The position numbers were made by a program, and so were the translations under genes. Positions 15,251-45,509 of a DNA stretch of 45,509 nucleotides are shown here, piece after piece. Under the pieces are notes generated by a model. It saw only the letters and a program-made list of their open reading frames with translations. It ran no database searches and was not told the origin of the DNA. This stretch comes from Lentimicrobium sp. (lineage in GTDB: Bacteria > Bacteroidota > Bacteroidia > Bacteroidales > 4484-276). How positions within the stretch are numbered: the first letter of the stretch is position 1; each line of letters starts with the position of its first letter. Location of the stretch: positions 1 through 45,509 of the forward strand of contig JAAYWF010000208.1 of assembly GCA_012516825.1 (NCBI GenBank), in the 5' to 3' direction.

Positions 15251-15880
15251 ATGGCAAAAAATTTATTTATAGCCTTTGAGGGTATTGATGGTAGTGGTAA
15301 AAGTACACAGATCAACCTATTGAAAAAAAATTTTGAAAATGCTGGACATAATGTTTATACTACCTTCGAACCTACTGATAAACCAATAGGTAAGCTTATC
15401 AGAGACATTTTTAATCATAGGTCGAATGCCGACCAACGTACAATTGCAGCACTTTTTGCGGCAGACCGTCTTGAACATATATTGGATAAAGAGAATGGCA
15501 TTATTAAAATGTTGAAAGAGGGGTTTACTGTTATTACTGATCGGTTTTATTTATCATCTTATGCTTATCATGGTGTTCATGTGCCGGTTGATTGGGTGAT
15601 ACAATGTAATATGCTTAGCGCTGAATTAATCCGACCGGATTTAAACATATTTATTGATATTGATCCGGAACTCGGAATGAAACGTTTGAAAAAAGGAAGA
15701 AACAGTTTAGAAATGTTTGAAACACTTGAAAATCAAAAAAAAGTAAGGGATAAATATTTTGAGATAATGGAAAAACTAAAATTCCAAGAAAAAATATTTG
15801 TTACTGATGGAAATCGTCCTGTTGAATTAATAGCTGAAGATATTTGGAAGGTTGTTGAAAATATCTTAGATAGGATATGA
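15251..15880 (+). CDS. tmk: dTMP (thymidylate) kinase
   Basis: 209 aa. P-loop FEGIDGSGKST and the DRF/LID region pattern. Confidence 0.9.
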   Translation: MAKNLFIAFEGIDGSGKSTQINLLKKNFENAGHNVYTTFEPTDKPIGKLIRDIFNHRSNADQRTIAALFAADRLEHILDKENGIIKMLKEGFTVITDRFYLSSYAYHGVHVPVDWVIQCNMLSAELIRPDLNIFIDIDPELGMKRLKKGRNSLEMFETLENQKKVRDKYFEIMEKLKFQEKIFVTDGNRPVELIAEDIWKVVENILDRI

Positions 15881-32361: not shown

Positions 32362-34275
32362 ATGGGAAAAATAATCGGAATTGATTTAGGTACATCTAAT
32401 TCGTGTGTTTCGGTAATGGAAGGTAACGAGCCTGTTATTATCCCCAATTCGGAAGGACGTAGAACTACCCCTTCCATTGTGGCATTTACCGAAAATGGCG
32501 AACGAAAAGTTGGCGATCCGGCCAAGCGTCAGGCAATCACAAATCCAAAAAACACTGTTTATTCCATCAAGCGTTTCATGGGCGAAACATTTGATAGGGT
32601 GCAGAAAGAGACCGGTCGTGTAACTTATGATGTTGTAAAGGGTGAAAATAATACCCCAAGGGTAAAGATAATGGATAGACAATATACCCCTCAAGAGATA
32701 TCGGCAATGGTTCTTCAGAAGATGAAGAAAACCGCAGAGGATTATCTTGGTACTACTGTTAATGAAGCTGTTATTACTGTTCCTGCCTATTTTAGTGACT
32801 CGCAGCGTCAGGCTACCAAAGAGGCAGGCGAGATCGCAGGTCTTAAGGTGCGGAGGATCATAAATGAGCCTACGGCAGCTTCGTTAGCCTATGGTTTGGA
32901 TAAGAAAAAAGATGACCTCAAAGTAGCAGTATTCGATCTCGGTGGCGGCACATTTGATATTTCTATTCTTGAGTTGGGCGATGGCGTCTTTGAAGTGAAA
33001 GCAACAAATGGCGACACACACCTTGGCGGAGATGATTTTGATCATGAGATAATTGATTGGTTAGCCTCTGAGTTTAAGGCCGATTTTAATATTGACCTTA
33101 AAAAAGACCCAATGGCTATGCAGCGCTTAAAAGAAGCTGCTGAAAAAGCAAAAATAGAGTTGTCAAGCTCAAGCGAAACGGAGATTAATCTGCCTTATAT
33201 TATGCCGGTTGACGGTATTCCGCAGCATCTTGTGAAAAAACTCACACGTGCAAAGTTTGAGCAAATCACTGAGAAGCTTACCAAAGCAACCATAGAGCCT
33301 TGTCGTAAGGCATTGGCTGATGCAGGAATAAAGGCCTCCGACATTGATGAGGTAATCTTGGTTGGCGGATCAACACGAATACCTGCTATCCAGCGGGTTG
33401 TAAAGGAATTTTTTGGTAAAGAACCCTCCAAAGGAGTAAATCCGGACGAAGTAGTAGCTATTGGAGCAGCTATTCAGGGAGGGGTACTTTCCGGTGATGT
33501 AAAAGATGTGCTGTTGCTCGACGTAACCCCGTTGACGTTAGGTATTGAAACCTTAGGCGGTGTGATGACAAAACTAATTGATGCCAACACAACTATCCCT
33601 ACCCGAAAATCAGAAGTCTTCTCCACAGCTTCTGACAATCAGCCATCGGTTGAAATACATGTATTGCAAGGAGAGAGGTCAATGGCAAGAGATAACAAAA
33701 CAATTGGAAGGTTTCATCTCGACGGGATACCACCGGCAATGAGAGGAATACCTAAAATTGAAGTTACTTTTGATATTGATGCTAACGGAATACTTAATGT
33801 GTCGGCTAAAGATCAGGGTACAGGAAAATCGCAAAGTATCAGAATAGAAGCCTCCTCAGGCCTGACGGATGAAGAGATTAAAAGGATGAAAGCCGAAGCT
33901 CAGGCCAACGCCGAAGCTGATAAGAAAGCAAAAGAACGTGTGGATAAATTGAATCATGCCGACTCCTTAATTTTTCAAACCGAAAAACAGTTGAAAGAGT
34001 ATGGAGATAAAATCCCCGCTGACAAGAAAAAGGTTATTGAAGATGCTATTACCGAGCTTAAAGATGCCCATAAACGTGAGGACCTGGATGCAATTGACAG
34101 AGCAAGCAAAGCATTGAACGACGCTTTTCAGGCTGCAAGCCAGGATATATATAATGCCACGCAGCAGCAAGGCGGAGAGCAGGCAGGTCAACAAAGTGAA
34201 GGAGCGGCAGGCGGTGATCATTCCGGAAGCACAGATCAAGATGTAACAGACGTTGACTTTGAAGAAGTGAAGTAA
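32362..34275 (+). CDS. dnaK: Molecular chaperone DnaK (Hsp70)
   Basis: 637 aa. [17 protein letters not shown] and [11 protein letters not shown] signatures. Confidence 0.98.
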
Positions 34276-34307
34276 AGACAATCAAAAATATTCAACTTAC
34301 GAGTAAA

Positions 34308-34340
34308 TAGCGGTAAAACATTTTCTTACCGCTATTTTTG
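34308..34340 (+). terminator. Intrinsic terminator after dnaK
   Basis: Stem TAGCGGTAA / TTACCGCTA (9 bp) with a 9-nt loop, followed by TTTTTG. Confidence 0.7.
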
Positions 34341-34673
34341 TTATTTCTTGTTCTTACTAAAGCTTAATTTAGTAAACTGAAAATATTTGAGTACTGTGGC
34401 AATACTTTCGAGGCTAAAACGTGGACTATTTGCTTTTGTAATTATTCCTGTGTAAATAGATCCGAAAAGGAAAGAAGATAGAAAGCAGTAGAGGAAAAAC
34501 GTAAAGAAACTTTACTAGATTTAACTGCAAATAAAATTGCAGAAGTCCGCTTTTTGCAACTACATTTCCGTGTCAGAAGAAACTGTACTTTTTGGAATTT
34601 CAAAGAACACTCCAAAATATAGTGCTGATTTATAATTATATCAATTTGTTTATCAAAAGGATGAGAAAACCTC

Positions 34674-34681
34674 TATTTTTG
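34674..34681 (+). promoter_or_regulatory. Candidate -7 element (TAnnTTTG) for the R-M operon
   Basis: TATTTTTG lies 29 nt upstream of the hsdM ATG. The nearest upstream TTTG (34645-34648) is 25 nt away, which is wider than the usual spacing. Confidence 0.35.
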
Positions 34682-34710
34682 TAGGATAAAGTAAAACTGA
34701 ATATTAATAA

Positions 34711-36282
34711 ATGGCAAAAAAACAAGTAAAAGAGAAGGCGATAGAGGTTGCGTTGTGGGAATCGGCGAATAAACTACGTGGAAGTGTAGAACCTTCGGAA
34801 TACAAACACGTAGTGCTAGCATTGATTTTTTTGAAATTTGTGAGTGACAAATTTGAAGAGCAACGAAAAAAACTAATCGAAGGCGGAAAAGAGAAATATA
34901 TAGAAAGACCGGAATTTTACAATATGAACAATGTCTTTTTTCTGAAAGAAGAAACTCGTTGGTCATACATTGTGAGCAAATCCCGTCAAAACGACATCGC
35001 GCTGATAATCGACACCGCTTTGCACACCATTGAAAAAGATAACAAAGCTTTGAAAGGTGCTTTGCCGGACAACTATTTTTCCCGTCTCGGACTTGACACA
35101 TCCAAATTAGCCGCTCTTATCAGCGAAATTGACAGCATAGATACACTGAAAGACAAGGAGCAAGACGTTATCGGGCGTATTTACGAGTATTTCTTGGGTA
35201 AATTTGCAATTGCCGAAGGGAAAGGAAAAGGTGAGTTTTACACACCCAAAAGCATTGTGAATCTGATTGCTGAGATGATTGAACCGTACAAAGGAGTAAT
35301 TTACGACCCTTGTTGCGGTTCAGGCGGAATGTTTGTGCAATCCATCAAGTTTATCGAGGCGCATCACGGCAATAAAAAAGAGGTTGCCATTTACGGACAG
35401 GAATATACCAATACCACCTACAAGCTGGCGAAAATGAACCTTGCCATTCGGGGAATCTCTGCCAATCTTGGTGAAAGAGCCGCTAACACATTCAGCAACG
35501 ACCTGCACAAAGACCTGAAAGCTGACTTTATTATGGCAAATCCGCCTTTTAATCAAAAAGATTGGCGAGCAGAAAATGAACTTTTGGATGATCCCCGTTG
35601 GAAAGGATACGAAATACCACCCACAAGCAACGCCAATTACGGTTGGATACTCCACATGGCCTCCAAACTCTCTGACCATGGCGTAGCCGGATTTCTTTTG
35701 GCAAATGGCGCCTTAAGTGGTGGCGGTGACGAATACAAAATTCGCAAGCAACTAATTGAAAATAATTTGGTGGAAGCTATCCTGATTTTACCGCGAAACA
35801 TGTTTTATACCACAGATATAAGTGTAACACTTTGGATATTAAACAAAAACAAAAAAGAGACCGTTCGGAAAATTGGAGACGAAACAAGAAATTACCGAGA
35901 CCGACAAAAGGAAATTCTTTTTATGGATTTACGGGAAATGGGCAAGCCTTTCGAGAAAAAATATATCCAATTCTCAGATGCAGATATTCAAAAAATTACC
36001 GAAACGTATCATAGTTGGCAGCAAATTGATTGGAAATCTACTTATAAAGATATTCCCGAATTCTGTTATTCCGCAAGTATCGAAGAAATAAGAGAGAAGG
36101 ATTATTCGCTTGTGCCGAGCAGATATATTGAGTTTGTTAATCGGGATGAAGAGATTGATTTTGATGAGAAAATGAAAAGTTTGCAGCGGGAAATAGGAGA
36201 ATTGTTACAAGAAGAAAAAAAATCTCGCAATGAGTTGCTACGTGTTTTTGAAGACTTAGGTTTTAAAATTGAGTTAAAATGA
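34711..36282 (+). CDS. hsdM: Type I restriction-modification system, DNA methyltransferase subunit M
   Basis: 523 aa. HsdM_N-type N-terminus (LWESANKLRGSVEPSEYKHVVLALIFLKFVSD), SAM motif I DPCCGSGGMF, and catalytic motif IV NPPFN. Confidence 0.95.
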   Translation: MAKKQVKEKAIEVALWESANKLRGSVEPSEYKHVVLALIFLKFVSDKFEEQRKKLIEGGKEKYIERPEFYNMNNVFFLKEETRWSYIVSKSRQNDIALIIDTALHTIEKDNKALKGALPDNYFSRLGLDTSKLAALISEIDSIDTLKDKEQDVIGRIYEYFLGKFAIAEGKGKGEFYTPKSIVNLIAEMIEPYKGVIYDPCCGSGGMFVQSIKFIEAHHGNKKEVAIYGQEYTNTTYKLAKMNLAIRGISANLGERAANTFSNDLHKDLKADFIMANPPFNQKDWRAENELLDDPRWKGYEIPPTSNANYGWILHMASKLSDHGVAGFLLANGALSGGGDEYKIRKQLIENNLVEAILILPRNMFYTTDISVTLWILNKNKKETVRKIGDETRNYRDRQKEILFMDLREMGKPFEKKYIQFSDADIQKITETYHSWQQIDWKSTYKDIPEFCYSASIEEIREKDYSLVPSRYIEFVNRDEEIDFDEKMKSLQREIGELLQEEKKSRNELLRVFEDLGFKIELK

Positions 36283-38312
36283 AAGAAAAACAACTAAACC
36301 TTTTTGAGTTGGGTGGTGAGTATGATATCTACTCACTTATCAACGATGAGTTTTTGCCGGAAGAGTACCACGAAATTGAATATAAATCCGGCAAAGACGG
36401 TTTCCCGAAAGAATTTTGGAAAACATATTCTGCCTTTGCCAACACCAATTCCGGAATTATTGTTATAGGGGTAAAAGAGAAGAGAGGAGTTTTTTCGATT
36501 GAGGGATTAACAGACGAGCAAATTTCAAAATATAAAAAGCATTTTTGGGATAACTGCAATAACCCGAATACTGTCAGTGTTAATCTTTTGAGCAATGAAG
36601 ATATAAAAGTTGTTGAGATTAAATCTAAAAAACTGCTGGCTATCAGGGTTCCTTTCGCTCACCGTACTCAAAAACCTGTTTTTCTTACACGAAATCCATT
36701 AGGAAATACTTACAAACGCAACCATGAAGGTGACTACCGATGTACCGATGACGAAGTGAAAAGAATGTTGGCTGATGCAGTTGCTGAACTTAAAAGAGAT
36801 AATCTGCTATTGGAGAATTTTACGATAGAGGATTTAGACCCCGTTAGCATTCGTCAGTTCCGTCAACTGTTTTCATCTACTAAGCCGGGGCATGCTTGGC
36901 TCAGTTTGGAAGATAAAGAACTATTGAAAAAAATCGGTGCTTATCGTATTAACCGAAAAACCAAGCAAGAAGGTATTACGCTTGCCGGATTGTTGATGTT
37001 CGGCAAAGAAGACAGTATTCGCGAGCAGGAAGCCTTACCCGATTATTTTCCTGATTTTAGAGAACGTTTGTCTATGGATGAAAAGGTACGATGGACAGAC
37101 CGTATTTATCCGGACGGAACTTGGGAATGTAACCTACTTCAGTTTTATTTAAAAGTGTGGCCCAAATTATCATCCACACTACCCAAACCATTCCATTTAG
37201 AAAAAGATGAACGTATTGATGAAACGCCTGCCCATGTTGCTCTGCGTGAAGCTTTTGTAAATTCATTGGTACATACAGATTATTCGTTAAGTGGAAATAT
37301 TATCATAGAACTTGATACGGAAAAGTTTGTATTTTCCAATCCGGGGACCCTTCTTGTTTCATTGGAACAGTATTACGCGGGAGGAGTAAGTGAATGTCGT
37401 AACCCTGCACTACAAAAAATGTTTATGCTGATTGGGCGTGCCGAAAAAGCAGGTAGCGGAGCAGATAAAATTATAAGCGGCTGGCAAGCTTCTCACTGGC
37501 GAAGACCCTACCTTGAAATTGAAAATCAGCCGGATAGAGTAAAGCTTACTTTGCCTATGTTTAATGTATTGCCTGAACAGGTACACAATGAACTGAACAC
37601 TATTTTTGGTGATTTAAGCCATTTTACTCCCGAAGAATTAGTTGCACTCTCTTTTAGCTTGATAGAAGGCTCTACTTCCAATCACCGTTTACAGTACGCA
37701 TTAAATATGCATAGTTCAGATATTACAAAAATGCTGAAAAAAATATGTGTGGACGGTTATTTGGAAGCTGAAAATTACGGTCGTTGGACTACGTATAAAA
37801 TAAAACCTAAGCTTGCAAGCTTAGACACAAACCTTGCAACCTCAGGTAGAAAGGTTGACACCTCAGGTGGCAAGGTCGCAAGCTTTGATAGAAAGGTTGA
37901 CACCTCAAGTAGCAAGGTTGCAAGCTTACGTGATAGAAACCTTGCTACCTCTGGCAGAAAGGTTGCAACCTCTAAAAAACGTGCTGATAATCAAGGAGAT
38001 GGCGGAGAGAAGGTTGCAACCTCTGAAAGAAAGGTTGCAACCTTACAAGATAGCAAGGTTGCAACCTTAGCTGAACTTCCCCAAAGAATGAGCGTAAAGA
38101 AAATGGAAAATATAATTATGCGAATTTGTAAGGATAATTACGTTAAAAAAGAAGAGCTTGCAGAACTATTAAACCGTTCGGAAAATTATATCAGAAATAA
38201 AATTTTACCGAGAATGCTAAAAGATGGAAAATTAGAGAAAAAATACCCGTTTACGCTTAATCATCCCGAACAAGCCTATAAAACCACAGAAGAATATGCA
38301 GAAAAACTATAA
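36279..38312 (+). CDS. AlbA_2 (Schlafen-like) + HATPase_c_4 (RecG-C-terminal-like) + repeat linker + wHTH protein
   Basis: 677 aa. N-terminal AlbA_2 pattern (EYHEIEYKSG...AFANTNSGIIVIGV...LAIRVPF...PVFL...YKRNHEGDYRCT). The central region (ALREAFVNSLVHTDY...NPGTLL...RNPALQKMF..IGRAEKAGSG) is typical of the HATPase_c_4 domain. Next come 11 KVATS-like repeats and a C-terminal helix-turn-helix-like tail. The ATGA start overlaps the hsdM stop. Confidence 0.75.
   Translation: MKEKQLNLFELGGEYDIYSLINDEFLPEEYHEIEYKSGKDGFPKEFWKTYSAFANTNSGIIVIGVKEKRGVFSIEGLTDEQISKYKKHFWDNCNNPNTVSVNLLSNEDIKVVEIKSKKLLAIRVPFAHRTQKPVFLTRNPLGNTYKRNHEGDYRCTDDEVKRMLADAVAELKRDNLLLENFTIEDLDPVSIRQFRQLFSSTKPGHAWLSLEDKELLKKIGAYRINRKTKQEGITLAGLLMFGKEDSIREQEALPDYFPDFRERLSMDEKVRWTDRIYPDGTWECNLLQFYLKVWPKLSSTLPKPFHLEKDERIDETPAHVALREAFVNSLVHTDYSLSGNIIIELDTEKFVFSNPGTLLVSLEQYYAGGVSECRNPALQKMFMLIGRAEKAGSGADKIISGWQASHWRRPYLEIENQPDRVKLTLPMFNVLPEQVHNELNTIFGDLSHFTPEELVALSFSLIEGSTSNHRLQYALNMHSSDITKMLKKICVDGYLEAENYGRWTTYKIKPKLASLDTNLATSGRKVDTSGGKVASFDRKVDTSSSKVASLRDRNLATSGRKVATSKKRADNQGDGGEKVATSERKVATLQDSKVATLAELPQRMSVKKMENIIMRICKDNYVKKEELAELLNRSENYIRNKILPRMLKDGKLEKKYPFTLNHPEQAYKTTEEYAEKL
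37807..38070. repeat. Array of about 11 palindromic AAG[G/C]TTGCAA[G/C]CTT-type units inside the CDS
   Basis: Perfect palindromes: CTAAGCTTGCAAGCTTAG (37807-37824, 18 bp), AGGTTGCAACCT (37960-37971 and 38011-38022), AAGGTTGCAACCTT (38031-38044 and 38055-38068). Degenerate or hybrid copies lie between them, for example AAGGTTGCAAGCTT at 37914-37927. The units encode K[LV][AD][ST] repeats. Confidence 0.9.
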
Positions 38313-39429
38313 GCGATTAGGCGAATACATACAACAGGTGGACGAAAGAAATTCCAATTTGGAAGATTTGCCTTTAATGGGGCTAAGTGTTCAAAAAATG
38401 TTTATTCCGTCCATAGCTAATACGATTGGCTCAAATATGGCAAACTACAAAACAATCTACAAAGATCAATTTGCTTATATTGCTGACACTTCACGACGTG
38501 GTGATAAAATTGCAGTTGCTCTTTTTAAAGACTATGAGAAGGCTTTAATCTCACAAGCATATACAACTTTCGAGATTACAGATACCAAAAAACTTATCCC
38601 GGAATATTTAATGATGTGGTTTAGTCGTCCTGAATTTGATAGGTATGCCAGATATAAAAGCCATGGAAGTGTAAGAGAGATTTTTTCTTGGGAAGAAATG
38701 TGTGATGTAATGGTTCCCATTCCCAATATTACCCAACAACAAGCACTTGTAGATGAATACCAAACCATAGAGCGACGAATACAAATAAACGAACAACTCT
38801 GCCAAAAATTAGAAGAAACAGCACAAGCTCTCTACCGAAAATACTTTGTAGAAGATATCGATACGGAAGATTTGCCGGAGGGGTGGAGATGGGGGAAGTT
38901 GGAGGAAATTGCTACAATTACAATGGGACAATCGCCTATGGGAGAAAGTTATAATATTGATGGAATAGGAGAAATATTTTATCAAGGTAGAAGTGATTTT
39001 GGAATGCGATTTCCAACAATTAGAATGTATACAAATGAGTCAACCAAAATGGCAAAGAAAGATGATGTTTTATTAAGTGTAAGAGCCCCAGTTGGAGATA
39101 TTAATATTGCACCACATAACTGTTGTATCGGTAGAGGACTGGCAAGTATAAGGAATAAGAAAAAACATAAATCCTACATATTTTATTTGACAAAGAATCT
39201 AGATGAAATATTTAATGTAGCTGATGGAGAAGGTACAATTTTTGGAAGTATTGATAGAAATACACTTTTAAACATTGATGTAATAATTCCAGATGAAGAA
39301 ACTGTTGAATTATTTGAAGGAAAAGTTTCATCTATTGACAGGTTATATAAATATAATGATCTAGAAATTAGAATATTAAAAAAAACACTATCTTTGCTGT
39401 TGGCAAAGATGGGGAGAAAGGAGGATTAG
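38296..39429 (+). CDS. hsdS: Type I restriction-modification system, specificity subunit S
   Basis: 377 aa. Two target-recognition domains are separated by a central coiled-coil conserved region (QQQALVDEYQTIERRIQINEQLCQKLEETAQALYRKYF), with a C-terminal conserved helix (LEIRILKKTLSLLLAKM). LPEGWRWGKLEEI opens the second TRD. The start overlaps the upstream gene by 17 nt. Confidence 0.9.
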   Translation: MQKNYKRLGEYIQQVDERNSNLEDLPLMGLSVQKMFIPSIANTIGSNMANYKTIYKDQFAYIADTSRRGDKIAVALFKDYEKALISQAYTTFEITDTKKLIPEYLMMWFSRPEFDRYARYKSHGSVREIFSWEEMCDVMVPIPNITQQQALVDEYQTIERRIQINEQLCQKLEETAQALYRKYFVEDIDTEDLPEGWRWGKLEEIATITMGQSPMGESYNIDGIGEIFYQGRSDFGMRFPTIRMYTNESTKMAKKDDVLLSVRAPVGDINIAPHNCCIGRGLASIRNKKKHKSYIFYLTKNLDEIFNVADGEGTIFGSIDRNTLLNIDVIIPDEETVELFEGKVSSIDRLYKYNDLEIRILKKTLSLLLAKMGRKED

Positions 39430-39431
39430 TT

Positions 39432-39854
39432 ATGACACATTTTGAGAAACTTGATAAATTATTAATGGGTTTAATGTCAAGAGTAAAACATCAAATGTCA
39501 GGAAATTCTGAAAATCCCAAACTAACATTTGATTTTCTTTGTGATGTCTTGTTGAAAGATGAAGGAATTGAGGATTGGGAAAAGCAGTTTTTGCAAAATC
39601 GTTTAATGAGCGATGGTTTTTTATCTTTTGATATTGTTAAAGGCATTTCAATTCCAAACATCACTCAAAAAGGAATTGAGTTTGTACAAAAAGGGGGATA
39701 TAGGAAATTACAAGAAAAAGAGAAATTGTTTGAAGAAGTTCAAATTTCAACAATAAAAAGTAATAATAGGAGTAAGTGGGCACTGATTGTTGCGATATTA
39801 TCTTTGATTATTACATTGATGTTTAATATTATAATCTTACTTCTTGATAAATGA
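39432..39854 (+). CDS. Small tail-anchored membrane protein, function unknown
   Basis: 140 aa. A soluble N-terminal region of about 115 aa contains ...PNITQKGIEFVQKGGYRK, possibly a wHTH wing. A single C-terminal hydrophobic helix (WALIVAILSLIITLMFNIIILLL) ends 2 residues before the stop. A canonical AGGAGG (39419-39424) lies 7 nt upstream of the ATG. No family was recognised. Confidence 0.6.
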   Translation: MTHFEKLDKLLMGLMSRVKHQMSGNSENPKLTFDFLCDVLLKDEGIEDWEKQFLQNRLMSDGFLSFDIVKGISIPNITQKGIEFVQKGGYRKLQEKEKLFEEVQISTIKSNNRSKWALIVAILSLIITLMFNIIILLLDK

Positions 39855-40936
39855 AACTACAAAATAGAATAAGAGACTTGTTTAAAAAAGATGGAAAAGG
39901 TTATTTGATAAAAAGAGAAAGCCATAACCTTGAATTTAAACAGAATTTTCAATTAGGGGACAACTTGTTGAAATATATCAAAACATTAGCCGGCATGGCT
40001 AATAATAAAGGTGGTATTATTCTATTTGGTATTCAAAATAGTCCACATATTCCAATAGGCATGACTAATAATCGTTTCACAGAAACTGATCCGGCAAAAA
40101 TAGATAGAAATATTAGGGAATATTTTTCTCAAGAATTAAAATGGAGTTCATTTATTCATAAAGAAGAAGATAAGGAGTTTGGGATATTGATTGTAAATGA
40201 AAGTGATGAGAAACCTGTTATTTGTAAAAAGAATGGAAGTGATGTGTTAAGAGAAGGTGCTATTTATTACAGATATAGAGCGGAAACAAAAGAAATTGAA
40301 TACCCTGAATTAAAAAAAATTCTTGACCATGAAAAAGAAAAAGAAAGAAATCTATGGATTAAACATATTGAAAAAATATCACATATAGGACCGAAAAATG
40401 TGCATTTATTAGATAGCTATACAGGCGAACTATTTGTGGGAAATGGGAAAATTCTTTTAAATGAAGAGTTATTAGACAAACTGAAATTTGTTAAAGAAGG
40501 GAGTTTTACGGAAAAAGAAGGCGAAGGTTTACCTACATTAAGACTTGTTGGCGATATTGATGGTGTTGTAGATACTTCAATCACAATTAAACCAGATGTC
40601 ATTTATCCATTAACCACAGCTGATTTACAAAGAAAATTAAATTTAAATCAATATGAAATTCAAGCAGTTATTTCAAAACTTGATATAAAGAATAAGCCTA
40701 AATATCATACTGCTATAAGAAGTGGCAAACAAACACAAGTTCATAAATACTCAGAAAATTTGGTTGATATTCTAGAAAGGATGATGCAAAAAGAAAGTTT
40801 TTTGCAAGATTGTATAAGCGAATATAAAGTAAAACAAGCTGAAATTCGTGAAAGTAAAAAAGCAAATCTTAATATTAAAAAGCGTAATAAAAAAAACATA
40901 AAAATCAATGACCAACAGCGAAATAATTCTTTATAA
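39851..40936 (+). CDS. Short AlbA_2 (Schlafen-like) domain protein with an uncharacterised C-terminal half and a basic tail
   Basis: 361 aa. AlbA_2 pattern RESHNLEFKQN...LAGMANNKGGIILFGI...FGILIVNESDEKPVICK...REGAIYYRYRAET. The C-terminal 190 aa or so are unassigned, and the tail is lysine-rich (KKANLNIKKRNKKNIK). ATGA overlap with the upstream gene. Confidence 0.65.
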   Translation: MKLQNRIRDLFKKDGKGYLIKRESHNLEFKQNFQLGDNLLKYIKTLAGMANNKGGIILFGIQNSPHIPIGMTNNRFTETDPAKIDRNIREYFSQELKWSSFIHKEEDKEFGILIVNESDEKPVICKKNGSDVLREGAIYYRYRAETKEIEYPELKKILDHEKEKERNLWIKHIEKISHIGPKNVHLLDSYTGELFVGNGKILLNEELLDKLKFVKEGSFTEKEGEGLPTLRLVGDIDGVVDTSITIKPDVIYPLTTADLQRKLNLNQYEIQAVISKLDIKNKPKYHTAIRSGKQTQVHKYSENLVDILERMMQKESFLQDCISEYKVKQAEIRESKKANLNIKKRNKKNIKINDQQRNNSL

Positions 40937-41906
40937 AAACTCGGAAGGTAATATTAAAATAGATGTTCGGCTCGAAGATGAAACCGTTTGGCTTACGCAA
41001 GCGCAGATTTGCGAATTGTTTCAAAAATCAAAAGCTACTGTAAGTGAACATATTAAAAATATATTTGAAGAGGGAGAGTTGAATGAGAATTCAGTTGTTC
41101 GGAATTTCCGAACAACTGCTTCGGATGGTAAAAACTACGATACCAATTTTTACAATCTCGACGTAATTATTTCTGTTGGTTATCGGGTAAAATCGCCACA
41201 AGGTACGCAGTTTCGTATTTGGGCAACCCAAAAACTGAAAGAATACATCATCAAGGGTTATGCACTGAATGATGAGCGTTTCAAAACAGGAACTTCGATG
41301 AATTATTTCAACGAACTGCAGGAACGCATCCGCGCAATTCGCCTTTCGGAGAAATTTTTCTACCAAAAAATCAAAGACATTTACACTACGAGCATCGACT
41401 ACGATCCCAAAGATGAAAAAACCATTGAGTTTTTTAAGGTAGTCCAAAATAAACTACTTTGGGCAATCAGCGAGCAAACGGCAGCCGAATTGGTGTATCG
41501 GCGTGCAGATGCAAGTTTGCCTATGATGGGAATGCTTTCTTACGACAAAGAGCAGGCTACTTCTATCAAAAAATCGGAAGTAAGTATTGCCAAAAACTAC
41601 CTGAATGAAGACGAGATGAAGTTACTTGGGCTTTTGGTAGAGCAATATTTGGCTTTTGCCGAAACAATGGCACAACAACATATACCCATGTATATGAAGG
41701 ATTGGATTGCTCGGTTGGATATTATTTTGAAACTAAACGGCAGAGAATTACTTACTCATGCAGGTAAAATATCTCATCAGTTGGCATTGAAAAAATCGGG
41801 AGAAGAGTATGAAAAATTCAAGAACCGACAAAAAGCGATTGAAAAAGCAACGAGTTTGAAAGAATTAGAAGAAGACATTCTCAAACTAAAAAAATCAAAG
41901 TCATGA
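40908..41906 (+). CDS. RhuM-family (Virulence_RhuM) protein
   Basis: 332 aa. The N-terminus EIILYKNSEGNIKIDVRLEDETVWLTQAQICELFQKSKATVSEHIKNIFEEGEL...VIISVGYRVKSPQGTQFRIWATQ is characteristic of the RhuM family. It overlaps the upstream gene by 29 nt, and its stop overlaps the hsdR start (ATGA). Confidence 0.85.
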   Translation: MTNSEIILYKNSEGNIKIDVRLEDETVWLTQAQICELFQKSKATVSEHIKNIFEEGELNENSVVRNFRTTASDGKNYDTNFYNLDVIISVGYRVKSPQGTQFRIWATQKLKEYIIKGYALNDERFKTGTSMNYFNELQERIRAIRLSEKFFYQKIKDIYTTSIDYDPKDEKTIEFFKVVQNKLLWAISEQTAAELVYRRADASLPMMGMLSYDKEQATSIKKSEVSIAKNYLNEDEMKLLGLLVEQYLAFAETMAQQHIPMYMKDWIARLDIILKLNGRELLTHAGKISHQLALKKSGEEYEKFKNRQKAIEKATSLKELEEDILKLKKSKS

Positions 41907-44900
41907 AATTCACCGAACATAAACTCGAAACCACCTTTATCCAACTGCTATCGGAAAAGGGCTATATGCACAGCACGGGTGTATCGGTGCCACGTGCTTC
42001 GGTGGATGAGGCGCTGATAGAAGATGATTTGCGGCGGTTTTTGTTGTCACGGTATCAGGCAGAAAACTTGACGGGAAATGAGGTAAATTCCATTATTTTA
42101 CAACTAAAATCCCTTCCTGCAAGTGATTTGTACGAAAGCAACAGGCGGTTTATGCAGATGCTTTCGGACGGTTTTATTCTGAAAAGGGAAGACCGCACGC
42201 AGAAAGATATCTATATTGAGCTTATTGATTACAGAGGATTGGAAAAACAGCTACAACTTGGCCCTGAAATGGCTATTATCCTGGCTGCGGATAAAGATGA
42301 AGAAGACTACTCACCCGATAAGAATATTTACAGATTTGTAAACCAAATGGAAATCGTGGGTACCGAAAAACGTATTCCCGACGGAATTATTTACGTAAAT
42401 GGTTTGCCTTTAGTGGTTTTTGAATTTAAGACAACCATTGAGGAAAATACCACTATTCATGATGCTTACAAACAACTTACGGTACGTTATCGTCGTGATA
42501 TTCCCGTGCTTTTTAAGTACAATGCTTTTTGCGTTATCAGCGACGGTATAAACAACAAGGCGGGTTCGTTTTTTGCCCCTTACGAATTTTATTATGCATG
42601 GCGAAGAGTGGCAGGTTCGGCAAAAGATGCTGAAGGCATCAGCAGTATGTTTACATTAATTAAAGGAATGTTTAATAAAAACCGTTTTCGGGATATCCTT
42701 CGCAACTTTATCTTTTTTCCCGACACGGGAGATAAAGAAACGAAAATTGTTTGTCGCTATCCGCAATATTACGCTGCTCGGGCTTTGTTTGAAAATATCA
42801 AGCATGAGCAAAAACCGCACGGTAACAGTAAAGGCGGAACCTATTTCGGCGCTACCGGCAGCGGCAAAAGTTTCACGATGCTTTACCTGACCCGCTTGCT
42901 GATGAAAAGCGAACATTTTGCAAGTCCTACGATAGTACTGATTACAGACCGCACCGATTTAGACGACCAACTTGTGGCACAATTTATCAATGCCAAGAAA
43001 TTCATCGGCGACGACACGGTACAAAGCGTCGAAAGCCGTACTGATTTACGTGAAAAACTACAAGGCAGACAAAGCGGAGGCGTTTTCCTTACCACCATCC
43101 AGAAATTTACCGAAGATACGGAACTACTTACCAAACGTAGTAATGTGATTTGCATTTCGGACGAAGCACACCGTACACAAACCAATCTTGAGCAAAAAAT
43201 CACTATTACCGAACAGGGTGTTATTAAATCGTATGGCTTTGCCAAATATCTGCACGATTCATTGCCCAATGCCACTTACGTAGGTTTTACAGGAACACCC
43301 ATAGATGCTACTTTGGATGTTTTCGGTCCGGTGGTGGATGCCTACACCATGACTGAATCGGTTCGTGATGAAATCACTGTGCGCATCGTTTACGAAGGCA
43401 GAGCTGCTAAAGTGGCGTTAGATAATAGTAAATTAGAAGAGATTGAACGTTACTATGAAGCAGCTGCGGAAGCGGGAGCCAATAAATACCAAATTGAACA
43501 AAGTAAAAAAGAGACTGCCAAGATGAATACCATCCTTGGCGACACGAAACGTTTACAGAATGTTGCCGAAGATTTTGTTGCTCATTACGAAAAACGTGTT
43601 TTGGAAAAAGCATCGTTGAAAGGCAAAGCAATGTTTGTTTGCAGCAGCAGAGAAATCGCTTACGAATTATTTAAGCGAATTATAGCTCTTAGACCCGAAT
43701 GGAACGAAATACGTGAAGCAGATGAAGATGCAGAACTTTCCGACAAGGATAAAAAGGAGTTGAAACCGATTGAGCGTATAAAAATGGTAATGACCCGCTC
43801 AAAAGACGACGAGAAAGAACTTTGGGATTTGTTAGGAACAAAGGAAGACAGAAAAGAGCTCGACAGACAATTCAAAAATGAGAAATCTAACTTTAAAATC
43901 GCTATCGTGGTGGATATGTGGCTCACAGGCTTCGATGTGCCTTCTTTAGACACTATTTACATTGACAAGCCAATTCAACAGCATAGTTTAATACAAACTA
44001 TTTCGCGGGTCAATCGGAAAGTGGAAGGTAAACACAAAGGTCTTGTGGTAGATTATATTGGAATAAAAAACAAAATGAATTTAGCGCTTGCACAATACGA
44101 TAAAATGGACGGCAAAAATTTTGAGGATATTTCTCAATCGCTCGTAATTATGCGCGACCATTTGGATTTGCTAAAACGCCTGATGCACAAGTTTGATGAT
44201 ACAAAATATTTCAAAGGTTTTGCTTTGGAACAGCTGAATACGCTGAATATGGCAGCCGAATTTGCACAGCAAACCAAAGAGACGGAAACTCGATTTATGG
44301 GATTAACAAGACGATTGAAAGCAGCTTATGATATTTGCGTGGGAAGCGAGCAAATAACGCAGGAGGAGCGAGACCATGTGCATTTTTATATGGCCGTTCG
44401 CTCTATTATTTTCAAGTTGACTAAAGGTGATACTCCCGATGTGGTACAAATGAACAACCGTGTGCGTGAAATGATTGAAGAAGCTTTGCGAAGCGACGGA
44501 GTGGAGGAAATCCTGAAAATCGGTGAAGATGCCAAAAGTGAACAGGATTTGTTTGACGGAGCCTATTTGGCTAAAATCAATAGGATAAAGCTACCCAATA
44601 CGAAAATCAAACTTTTGCAAAAACTATTGACAAAAGCTATTGGGCAATTACGAACAGTAAACCGCCTGAAAGGAATTGATTTCAGCCGCAGGATGCAACA
44701 ATTGGTAGAGCAATACAACAACCGTTCGGCGAATGATATTTTGCGAAGCGAGGTATATGAAGAAATGGCTGAACAACTTACCAACTTGATTTGGGATGTT
44801 CACAAAGAGTTTACTGCCGGAGAAGAATTGGGAATTGACTTTGAAGAAAAAGCCTTTTATGATATACTAAAAGAGCTGTGCGTGAAATACGATTTCACAT

Positions 44901-45121
44901 ATCCGGACGACAAAATGATATTATTGTCTAAAAAGGTAAAAGAGTTAGTGGATAGCCAATCCCGTTATCCCGATTGGAATAAGCGTGAAGATATAAAATC
45001 GGCATTGAAAGTGGGATTAATTTTACTGCTTGATGAATACAATTATCCACCCGTTGAACAAGATGAAGTTTATGTAGAAATCTTTGAACAAGCGGAGAAT
45101 TTTAAGAAAAATAGGGTATGA
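41903..45121 (+). CDS. hsdR: Type I restriction-modification system, endonuclease/translocase subunit R
   Basis: 1072 aa. N-terminal PD-(D/E)xK nuclease (IPDGIIYVNGLPLVVFEFK). SF2 motifs GATGSGKS, ISDEAHR, GFTGTPI and QTISRVNR. The C-terminal helical domain with ...FEEKAFYDILK... is typical of the HsdR C-terminal (DUF3387-like) region. Confidence 0.95.
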   Translation: MKFTEHKLETTFIQLLSEKGYMHSTGVSVPRASVDEALIEDDLRRFLLSRYQAENLTGNEVNSIILQLKSLPASDLYESNRRFMQMLSDGFILKREDRTQKDIYIELIDYRGLEKQLQLGPEMAIILAADKDEEDYSPDKNIYRFVNQMEIVGTEKRIPDGIIYVNGLPLVVFEFKTTIEENTTIHDAYKQLTVRYRRDIPVLFKYNAFCVISDGINNKAGSFFAPYEFYYAWRRVAGSAKDAEGISSMFTLIKGMFNKNRFRDILRNFIFFPDTGDKETKIVCRYPQYYAARALFENIKHEQKPHGNSKGGTYFGATGSGKSFTMLYLTRLLMKSEHFASPTIVLITDRTDLDDQLVAQFINAKKFIGDDTVQSVESRTDLREKLQGRQSGGVFLTTIQKFTEDTELLTKRSNVICISDEAHRTQTNLEQKITITEQGVIKSYGFAKYLHDSLPNATYVGFTGTPIDATLDVFGPVVDAYTMTESVRDEITVRIVYEGRAAKVALDNSKLEEIERYYEAAAEAGANKYQIEQSKKETAKMNTILGDTKRLQNVAEDFVAHYEKRVLEKASLKGKAMFVCSSREIAYELFKRIIALRPEWNEIREADEDAELSDKDKKELKPIERIKMVMTRSKDDEKELWDLLGTKEDRKELDRQFKNEKSNFKIAIVVDMWLTGFDVPSLDTIYIDKPIQQHSLIQTISRVNRKVEGKHKGLVVDYIGIKNKMNLALAQYDKMDGKNFEDISQSLVIMRDHLDLLKRLMHKFDDTKYFKGFALEQLNTLNMAAEFAQQTKETETRFMGLTRRLKAAYDICVGSEQITQEERDHVHFYMAVRSIIFKLTKGDTPDVVQMNNRVREMIEEALRSDGVEEILKIGEDAKSEQDLFDGAYLAKINRIKLPNTKIKLLQKLLTKAIGQLRTVNRLKGIDFSRRMQQLVEQYNNRSANDILRSEVYEEMAEQLTNLIWDVHKEFTAGEELGIDFEEKAFYDILKELCVKYDFTYPDDKMILLSKKVKELVDSQSRYPDWNKREDIKSALKVGLILLLDEYNYPPVEQDEVYVEIFEQAENFKKNRV

Positions 45122-45242
45122 CGCTTTGAAAAATACAACCTGAAATAACAAGAAGGGAGCTTGCCAAAAAGTTAGATAGAACGGAAGACAGTTTTCATTC
45201 TTTTTGAAGAAGAAAACAAGGACAATTAAATTTATATTAAAT

Positions 45243-45276
45243 AATCCCGGTGATTAATTTCATCGGGATTTTTTGT
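45243..45276 (+). terminator. Intrinsic terminator after hsdR
   Basis: Stem AATCCCGGTGA / TCATCGGGATT (11 bp, one G-U pair) with a 6-nt loop, followed by TTTTTG. Confidence 0.7.
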
Positions 45277-45509
45277 TGGTTGTTGATGTTCAAGAAAATA
45301 TGATTTTATTTAAGATATTAAGACAAAAACTTTTTAACAGGTTGGCGCTGATCGCTCACAATTGATTATTTTTAGGCCTTGGTTTTAAGATAAAAATCAA
45401 CTAAGAATGTATAAGATCTACTTAATTATCAGTGGTTTATTTTAAATGCTTCGATAATAACTATTAAACATATACTTTTAAATTATGAAAAACATCTACA
45501 ACTATTTAA

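Follow-up and report, generated by a model that had tools for sequence, protein, structure and literature searches.

Are the additional genes found inside a type I restriction-modification (R-M) operon parts of the restriction machinery, or are they defence modules of their own, which share its transcription and its transfer? This question is raised by a locus of Lentimicrobium sp., in a stretch of 45,509 nucleotides (nt) of contig JAAYWF010000208.1 (assembly GCA_012516825.1; this whole stretch is referred to hereafter as the window), where seven plus-strand genes lie downstream of dnaK and four open reading frames (ORFs), the cargo, are nested among hsdM, hsdS and hsdR. The locus is an accessory island in a Bacteroidales bacterium from anaerobic digesters, and its sequence makes it quite probable that it is a defence island, in which a type I R-M backbone carries nested, and probably autonomous, anti-phage modules.

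The operon and its nested genes

34711-36282, +: hsdM, type I methyltransferase subunit, 523 amino acids (aa)
36279-38312, +: ORF2, Schlafen/AlbA_2 + HATPase_c_4 + helix-turn-helix (HTH) protein in the hsdM-to-hsdS slot, 677 aa
38296-39429, +: hsdS, specificity subunit with two target-recognition domains, 377 aa
39432-39854, +: ORF4, small winged-helix protein with a C-terminal membrane helix, 140 aa
39851-40936, +: ORF5, second Schlafen-type nuclease, 361 aa
40908-41906, +: ORF6, RhuM-family protein and PADLOC candidate PDC-S05, 332 aa
41903-45121, +: hsdR, restriction/translocase subunit, 1072 aa
37809-38070, +: 21/42-nt tandem repeats within ORF2, KVATS-like heptads between the HTH region and the C-terminal domain

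The seven plus-strand genes and all six of their junctions, when recomputed, lie where a first-pass annotation of this DNA had placed them, and the nesting of four extra same-strand genes among hsdM, hsdS and hsdR, which it had described, is borne out. Three junctions are ATGA overlaps (36279-36282, 39851-39854 and 41903-41906), and the remaining ones are a 17-nt overlap (38296-38312), a 2-nt gap (39430-39431) and a 29-nt overlap (40908-40936). The same annotation had called all of these genes translationally coupled. The tight junctions are present and are compatible with such coupling, but overlaps are not unique to the operon, given that they also occur elsewhere in the window (e.g., at 15877/15880 and 17901/17908), and coupling, like a single transcript of the seven genes, is something that we infer from the layout.

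Two of the junctions depend on how the neighbouring genes are read. The start of ORF4 is ambiguous, being placed at 39465 (129 aa) in several public gene calls, and the start at 39432 is supported because the N-terminal extension is kept in four of five homologues. The 29-nt overlap between ORF5 and RhuM was considered as a designed coupling, but it is more likely a by-product of the junction, because the tail of ORF5 is 12-20 residues longer than those of its homologues, and because RhuM is a separate insertion, as indicated by its absence from the otherwise collinear operon L108.

The backbone is recognised through each of its three subunits. HsdM matches Pfam N6_Mtase (E-value, E, of 5e-106) and HsdM_N, together with the PADLOC model MTase_I (E 4e-148), and has the S-adenosylmethionine (AdoMet) motif DPCCGSG at residue 199 and the catalytic motif NPPF at residue 277. 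HsdS matches Pfam Methylase_S, and the PADLOC Specificity_I models cover both of its halves (residues 4-182 and 192-372). HsdR combines the Pfam domains HSDR_N, SWI2_SNF2, T1R_D3-like and T1RH-like_C, reaches 456 bits against TIGR00348 (cutoff 284.55), and has the motifs D160...EFK, GATGSGKS at 316 and DEAH at 420. Its nearest solved structure is that of the HsdR of EcoR124I (type IC; E 1.5e-25 over residues 140-722), with which it has in common the order of the nuclease, the superfamily 2 (SF2) motor and the helical domain; the relationship is only distant, however, and the C-terminal T1RH-like_C indicates another HsdR lineage. The type I subfamily is left unassigned. Judged by these domains and motifs, hsdM, hsdS and hsdR are intact and complete, and the backbone probably methylates and restricts DNA in the usual type I way.

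The cargo had been taken for a set of defence genes, and Pfam and PADLOC do place it in defence-associated families, i.e., two Schlafen-type nucleases and a RhuM/PDC-S05 protein, while NCBIfam returned no match for any cargo protein. ORF2 and ORF5 both match Pfam SLFN_AlbA_2 above the gathering score (E 5.6e-14 and 1.9e-15, respectively). In ORF2, the Schlafen domain is followed by a GHKL-type ATPase (HATPase_c_4, E 1e-9), an HTH region, a heptad-repeat linker and a C-terminal domain, and the Ex4ExK motif is intact (E29-YHEI-E-Y-K), as it is in the ORF2 relatives inspected; a sequence search with ORF2 against solved structures gave one weak match only (3lmm, E 3e-4). The copy number of the repeats in the linker varies, with orthologues of 624 to 711 aa (that of L112 has 711 aa, with extra units, vs 677 aa here), and the length of the linker thus seems variable. 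In ORF5, the motif is E23-SHNL-E-F-K, in which E23, E28 and K30 are invariant in 30 homologues, and the C-terminal domain matches the end of the PADLOC PDC-S19 models (E 2.4e-9). The N-terminal domain of its AlphaFold2 (AF2) model matches SLFN13/5/11/12/14 (E 1.5e-4 to 1e-3, probability 1.0) and is thus predicted to have the Schlafen nuclease fold.

ORF6 matches Pfam Virulence_RhuM (PF13310; E 3e-101 over 250 of 252 profile positions) and PDC-S05 (E 1.7e-135 over 322 of 336 positions). RhuM is 72-85% identical across phyla, and no solved structure was matched by a sequence search with it.

Selection on each of the four cargo genes is purifying, with ratios of nonsynonymous to synonymous divergence (dN/dS) of 0.03-0.23 against their orthologues (ORF2, 0.07-0.18; ORF4, 0.20-0.23; ORF5, 0.10; RhuM, 0.03-0.05). 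The possibility that the cargo consists of inactive relics, which the first-pass annotation had named as an outcome that would speak against its own reading, is excluded by these values together with the kept catalytic motifs.

A strain-variable island behind dnaK

38898-41393, +: tract exchanged within the species, comprising the second half of hsdS, ORF4, ORF5 and the first ~490 nt of RhuM
34258-34286, no strand: left boundary repeat, TTTGAAGAAGTGAAGTAAAGACAATCAAA, the last dnaK codons, the stop and a few bases
45203-45231, no strand: right boundary repeat, TTTGAAGAAG-AAAACAAGGACAATTAAA, a diverged copy of the dnaK 3' end
34308-34340, +: island-borne hairpin with a T run, dG -13.9 kcal/mol, z -3.9 vs shuffles (region 34300-34350)
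45243-45276, +: hairpin terminator at the operon end, 11-bp stem with a T run, dG -18.0 kcal/mol, z -4.8 (region 45235-45285)
34645-34681, +: candidate Bacteroidota-type promoter, with TATTTTTG at 34674-34681 (TAnnTTTG pattern) and TTTG at 34645-34648
39389-39396 and 39799-39806, +: TATCTTTG motifs (TAnnTTTG pattern), 36 and 45 nt upstream of the starts of ORF4 and ORF5
45486-45509, no strand: start, at the end of the window, of the next chromosomal gene, which encodes a 960-aa protein (Fn3_assoc, CHB_HEX_C_1, DUF5689, Por_Secre_tail)

The comparison of the region downstream of dnaK, which had been proposed as a check, was based on 24 contigs, all encoding an identical DnaK, and it identified the locus as a strain-variable accessory island for which an empty site exists. 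The same seven-gene operon is present in 16 of the 24 contigs, while six break in hsdS, one has a swapped allele and one has the empty site. A contig of a public metagenome-assembled genome (L031) shows 100% identity. The variant allele (L082 and L111) agrees with the window at 99.9% identity as far as position 38897, in the middle of hsdS, and is unrelated to it from there on, with a different second target-recognition domain (the first half of HsdS is identical in L082) and an 881-aa DUF4062/STAND-like NTPase that replaces ORF4 and ORF5. L082 rejoins the window at 40908, the start of RhuM, at 95.9% identity, and the density of single-nucleotide polymorphisms in L082 and L111 is raised until ~490 nt into RhuM, dropping after nt 486. 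A single recombination event would therefore change both the defence cargo and half of the R-M specificity. Contigs of several other samples stop at the same point of hsdS, as expected where the strains differ. The exchanged tract coincides with a dip in base composition, with a GC content of 0.28 and a third-position GC content (GC3) of 0.18-0.23 in ORF4 and ORF5, vs 0.39-0.41 and ~0.40, respectively, in hsdM and hsdR. In one contig only, the RhuM gene of the variant allele (L111:13978-15026) has a 2-nt insertion at gene position 657, which splits it into ORFs of 241 aa and 96 aa and is either a real pseudogene of this allele or an assembly error.

The borders of the island can be read from the contig with the empty site (L083), which matches the window to 34286 and resumes at 45203. 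Given that dnaK lies, in this allele, directly before the hairpin of 45243 and the next chromosomal gene (that of the 960-aa Por_Secre_tail protein), the insertion corresponds to ~34284-45222, with a start at ~34284-34287, just after the dnaK stop codon, an end at ~45222, and a length of ~11 kb. A three-way alignment including the empty site also brought to light an imperfect direct repeat of the dnaK 3' end at both borders (34258-34286 and 45203-45231), contrary to the earlier statement that no direct repeats are visible; the 10-nt exact word common to both copies was reached by 16 of 2000 random 61-nt pairs. An old site-specific integration may have left this repeat behind. The rest of that statement, on integrases and tRNAs, holds, as there is no tRNA gene, Pfam found no transposase or integrase domain among the seven operon proteins, and Rfam gave no match across the island at E <= 0.1.

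The two hairpins that had been described as bracketing the operon are confirmed, as both fold far better than shuffled sequences and are followed by a T run. The hairpin at 34308-34340 is absent from the empty-site allele, in which the 45243 hairpin follows dnaK directly. By this comparison, the former arrived with the island and now acts as the dnaK terminator of the present strain, and the latter is the ancestral dnaK terminator, displaced by the insertion. Within the operon, no convincing plus-strand internal terminator was found, and terminator-like sites are not enriched (10 vs 8.6 +/- 3.1 in shuffles).

At the upstream end, seven plus-strand TAnnTTTG sites were found by the pattern scan, of which only that at 34674-34681 has an upstream TTTG. 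The pattern is based on what we take to be the Bacteroidota promoter consensus, and the 25-nt spacing of the candidate exceeds the spacing that we assume for it. A sigma-70 promoter scan gave many weak matches (47 vs 35.6 +/- 5.3) and was of little use because the organism belongs to the Bacteroidales, for which the TAnnTTTG pattern was scanned instead.

Passengers or parts of the restriction complex

Related operons in other genomes indicate which of the genes go together. The loci found through RhuM come from Bacteroidota, from a metagenome-assembled genome (MAG) of the Leptospiraceae and from a MAG of the Methylococcaceae; sixteen of them have R-M genes of the same family (>55% identical), and ten have both hsdM and RhuM. 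In these loci, RhuM usually lies just before hsdR, with variable genes in the other slots, i.e., Gabija-like pairs, SIR2+HerA, AAA_13 (PrrC/RloC-like) proteins, a reverse transcriptase or a Ymh protein between hsdS and RhuM, and either nothing or ORF6N, KilA-N or DUF1016/YhcG proteins between hsdM and hsdS. The operons of the ORF2 clade hold, in the hsdS-to-hsdR slot, Gabija, a YobI NTPase, SIR2+HerA, an AAA+ protein, AAA_15, AAA_13, an LRR-Roc-COR-TIR protein, an SMC-like ATPase, an ORF5-like Schlafen protein or a SIR2-Piwi fusion. STAND-like proteins are also among the hsdS-to-hsdR cargo of related operons, and AAA_13 proteins are found in this slot in the sister loci L024, L072 and L126. 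None of the related loci retrieved combines two Schlafen genes with RhuM and a small membrane protein, as the window does. In the operon with the SIR2-Piwi fusion (L115:11116-16041), the gene of this 1042-aa Argonaute-type protein lies before a second Schlafen-GHKL-HTH gene, so that the operon has two copies of the ORF2 architecture.

ORF2 follows a different pattern from that of the genes in the hsdS-to-hsdR slot. Its homologues with at least 60% identity and enough flanking sequence are nearly all found between hsdM and hsdS of the same family, the exceptions being the decayed operon L129 and two short contigs (L118 and L134) in which no R-M genes are detectable; homologues with 59% identity or less have no such R-M neighbours, and the distant relatives stand alone. 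By its distribution, ORF2 is a long-term resident of the hsdM-to-hsdS slot, co-inherited with hsdM and hsdS. In L129 (L129:1022-4350), the ORF2-like gene lies directly before the last ~23 residues of HsdR, with a 36-residue trace of hsdM upstream, and here the Schlafen gene has outlived the R-M genes.

The first-pass annotation had taken the co-transcription of cargo and R-M subunits as a sign of a functionally integrated locus, and the comparison does not support this part of its reading. The relatives of ORF5 occur alone in a defence island, beside transporters with no R-M genes nearby, and in another type I operon that lacks ORF4, while members of the same R-M family have hsdM next to hsdS, with no insert between them, and alleles of the one species differ by an exchange of the hsdS-to-hsdR cargo. 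The stand-alone relatives of ORF5, the adjacent hsdM-hsdS pairs and the retention of ORF2 in L129 favour independent modules with a common transcription and transfer. Several observations weigh against the reading of the locus as a set of autonomous defence modules. ORF2 keeps its ATGA overlap with hsdM and its 17-nt overlap with hsdS in the related operons examined, down to ~60% identity, which could point to a gene that depends on the R-M complex and is not autonomous. Among the seven bacterial Schlafen systems tested in one study, only the fusions with DUF262 and Ig-like domains scored (PMC13056530). Internal promoters are possible as well, because five TAnnTTTG motifs lie within the operon, two of them, the TATCTTTG motifs, 36-45 nt before ORF4 and ORF5; these could be weak internal promoters, or matches that arise by chance where the sequence is AT-rich, and the count of the pattern (7 vs 4.2 +/- 2.1) is not enriched and gives no verdict on internal promoters.

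The conserved placement of ORF2 also bears on an explanation in which one or more of the cargo RNases, above all ORF2, would be held latent on HsdM, HsdS or HsdR, in the manner of PrrC, and would fire only when a phage anti-restriction protein disables the R-M enzyme, which would amount to the functional integration that the first-pass annotation had suggested. The residence of the close ORF2 homologues between hsdM and hsdS, their kept overlaps and the retention of ORF2 in both alleles of the species are in line with such a guard, and the hsdS-to-hsdR position of the other cargo is that of prrC in the EcoprrI locus. The embedding of prrC is cited in 10.1101/2024.01.29.577857. PrrC and RloC, which the first-pass annotation had invoked as precedents, nevertheless remain an analogy and not a case of membership, because no cargo protein is of this type: Pfam and PADLOC detected no ABC, AAA_13 or HEPN match in ORF2, ORF4, ORF5 and ORF6, so that the ABC-ATPase and HEPN domains of PrrC and RloC are both absent. 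The stand-alone relatives of ORF5, the more distant ones of ORF2 and the survival of ORF2 in L129 after the loss of hsdS and hsdR also argue against a guard, and the identities of hsdM and ORF2 are not fully congruent (83%/60% in L108 vs 77%/74% in L115). Given these opposing lines of evidence, a guard is considered unlikely, but deserves to be kept in mind.

Two other explanations would remove the cargo from defence proper. The winged-helix or HTH-like regions of both ORF2 and ORF4, and the label of “predicted HTH transcriptional regulator” that some sources give to such proteins, would suit transcriptional controllers of the R-M operon, comparable to C proteins, rather than effectors. Against this, ORF2 and its relatives have retained the Schlafen Ex4ExK motif, neither ORF2 nor ORF4 is present in closely related R-M operons, and relatives of ORF4 are found beside unrelated non-R-M genes (HNH, DUF2971 and AAA_21+RloB), which makes such a regulatory role very improbable. 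More improbable still is a selfish persistence, in which toxin-like cargo is maintained through its linkage to the R-M genes, or through the stabilisation of the island, and gives no protection of its own against phages. The ideas of a “genomic sink” and of selfish linkage have been discussed (10.1101/2024.01.29.577857), and the hsdS-to-hsdR cargo has a GC content of 0.24-0.33, vs 0.38-0.45 in hsdM and hsdR, in many loci, across species and whatever the cargo family. Every cargo gene is under purifying selection, however, sister loci hold experimentally established defence systems in the same slot, and protection has been recorded for a tested PDC-S05 candidate with a Virulence_RhuM domain, which reduced the plating of T7 and T5 ~1000-fold (10.1101/2024.09.26.614923), and for two Schlafen fusions (PMC13056530).

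In the favoured reading, one promoter upstream of hsdM would serve all seven genes, with transcription ending at the former dnaK terminator, and with one promoter and one terminator, the seven genes would be expressed and transferred as a unit. The R-M enzyme would attack unmethylated incoming DNA, and the Schlafen proteins, with their fused domains as sensors of infection, would cleave tRNA and arrest translation. RhuM, which is predicted to be toxin-like, would provide a further toxic or abortive layer, and these layers would probably be autonomous, with no physical dependence on the R-M complex. The cassette would be renewed through homologous recombination between conserved flanks, with the central part of hsdS as the left flank and RhuM/hsdR as the right one; the exchange between the alleles shows this renewal in part.

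Such an arrangement has parallels in known systems. According to a systematic survey of 2024, defence genes are frequently embedded in type I R-M, BREX and DISARM systems, 96.7% of them in the orientation of the host system, and genes embedded in this way were the source of the PADLOC PDC models (10.1101/2024.01.29.577857). As in these guilt-by-embedding loci (Payne et al.; type I R-M, BREX, DISARM and Hma; 10.1101/2024.01.29.577857), the window nests same-strand genes between core genes: all four cargo genes are on the plus strand between hsdM and hsdR, they are not mobility or housekeeping genes, and relatives have other defence genes in the slot. RhuM of the window matches PDC-S05 and the C-terminus of ORF5 matches PDC-S19, while ORF4 matches no PADLOC model; the names PDC-S05, PDC-S19 and PDC-S23 were not found in the supplements of Payne et al. 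(10.1101/2024.01.29.577857). The EcoprrI-PrrC/RloC loci are alike in having an RNA-targeting effector gene between type I subunit genes, which makes a back-up through translation shut-off plausible, but their effectors are ABC-ATPase + HEPN proteins, whereas the cargo here is of the Schlafen and RhuM types.

Operons that combine R-M, RNase and RhuM/DOC genes were proposed in 2013 as a multilevel defence (Anantharaman et al., PMC3710099), and the window resembles them in placing RhuM beside an RNase-type effector, with layers directed at DNA, RNA and protein; the RNase layer is HEPN there and of the Schlafen type here. A literature search that combined RhuM, type I restriction and embedded gave no match. 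Bacterial Schlafens cleave tRNA and protect against phages, and the Slfn-HisKinase-HTH layout accounts for 19.2% of their architectures, among the commonest (Perez Taboada et al., Nat Microbiol 2026, PMC13056530). ORF2 and ORF5 share with these prokaryotic nucleases the PF04326 domain, the Ex4(E/D)xK motif and presumed sensor fusions, ORF2 having the common Slfn-HisKinase(GHKL)-HTH layout and ORF5 the Schlafen fold in its N-domain. The protective fusions, with DUF262 and Ig-like domains (PMC13056530), are unlike either layout, and the window is particular in having two paralogues within a single R-M operon.

The locus adds an example, and not a concept, because type I R-M operons are already established as carriers of immune genes. 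Its value lies in the three natural states that are found in one species, i.e., the full operon, the swapped cassette with its change of half of the specificity, and the empty site, which form a natural isogenic comparison set, with which it can be asked if embedded genes contribute to protection and if they depend on the R-M enzyme. Two Schlafen architectures, neither of them among those shown to protect, are moreover combined with RhuM in a single predicted transcription unit. The useful leads are thus the three natural alleles and the small, membrane-anchored winged-helix family of ORF4.

The small protein ORF4 and minor observations

ORF4 is understood less well than any other part of the locus, and its family is not recognised by the defence catalogues searched, PADLOC included; Pfam and NCBIfam likewise gave no match. 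In its AF2 model (predicted local distance difference test score, pLDDT, of 83), a winged helix leads into a long helix whose last segment is hydrophobic (the hydropathy peaks at residues 118-136), and weak fold matches to the PadR/MarR/F-93 winged helices were obtained (E 6e-3). The close family comprises seven clusters, and every member that was looked up lies directly 3' of hsdS in the same operon clade, where the last ~67 nt of hsdS and ORF4 form a conserved block of DNA. The genes that follow these close members are unrelated to one another, including an ORF5-like Schlafen gene and those of a 1012-aa SMC-like ATPase and a 1285-aa YobI NTPase.

On a wider scale, a profile search of 1.84 billion representatives returned 86 clusters (50% identity) of similar size. 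Three of these were looked up, and they lie before AAA_21+RloB, after HNH and after DUF2971 (L197, L199 and L201); no relatives of ORF4 were found on viral contigs. ORF4 and ORF5 were also considered as an obligate two-gene system, which was rejected, given that relatives of ORF4 precede unrelated genes and those of ORF5 occur without ORF4.

Two more far-reaching readings may be considered jointly, although we think it rather improbable that they apply. In one of them, ORF4 would represent an undescribed tail-anchored winged-helix family, which could provide a promiscuous membrane adaptor or sensor for neighbouring defence-type genes. In the other, the Schlafen-GHKL-HTH clade of ORF2 would be a true fourth component of one type I R-M lineage, and may be a Schlafen-based analogue of PrrC that is held latent by the restriction complex.

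Finally, in three related operons (L105, L112 and L114), synonymous divergence (dS) from the window is 0.35-1.09 in ORF2, hsdS and ORF4, vs 0.79-1.70 in hsdM and hsdR of the same locus pairs, which suggests either a mosaic history or composition effects of the AT-rich part of the operon. At the upstream end, a 142-aa minus-strand ORF at 34673-35101 overlaps the promoter region and the start of hsdM, and is probably spurious.

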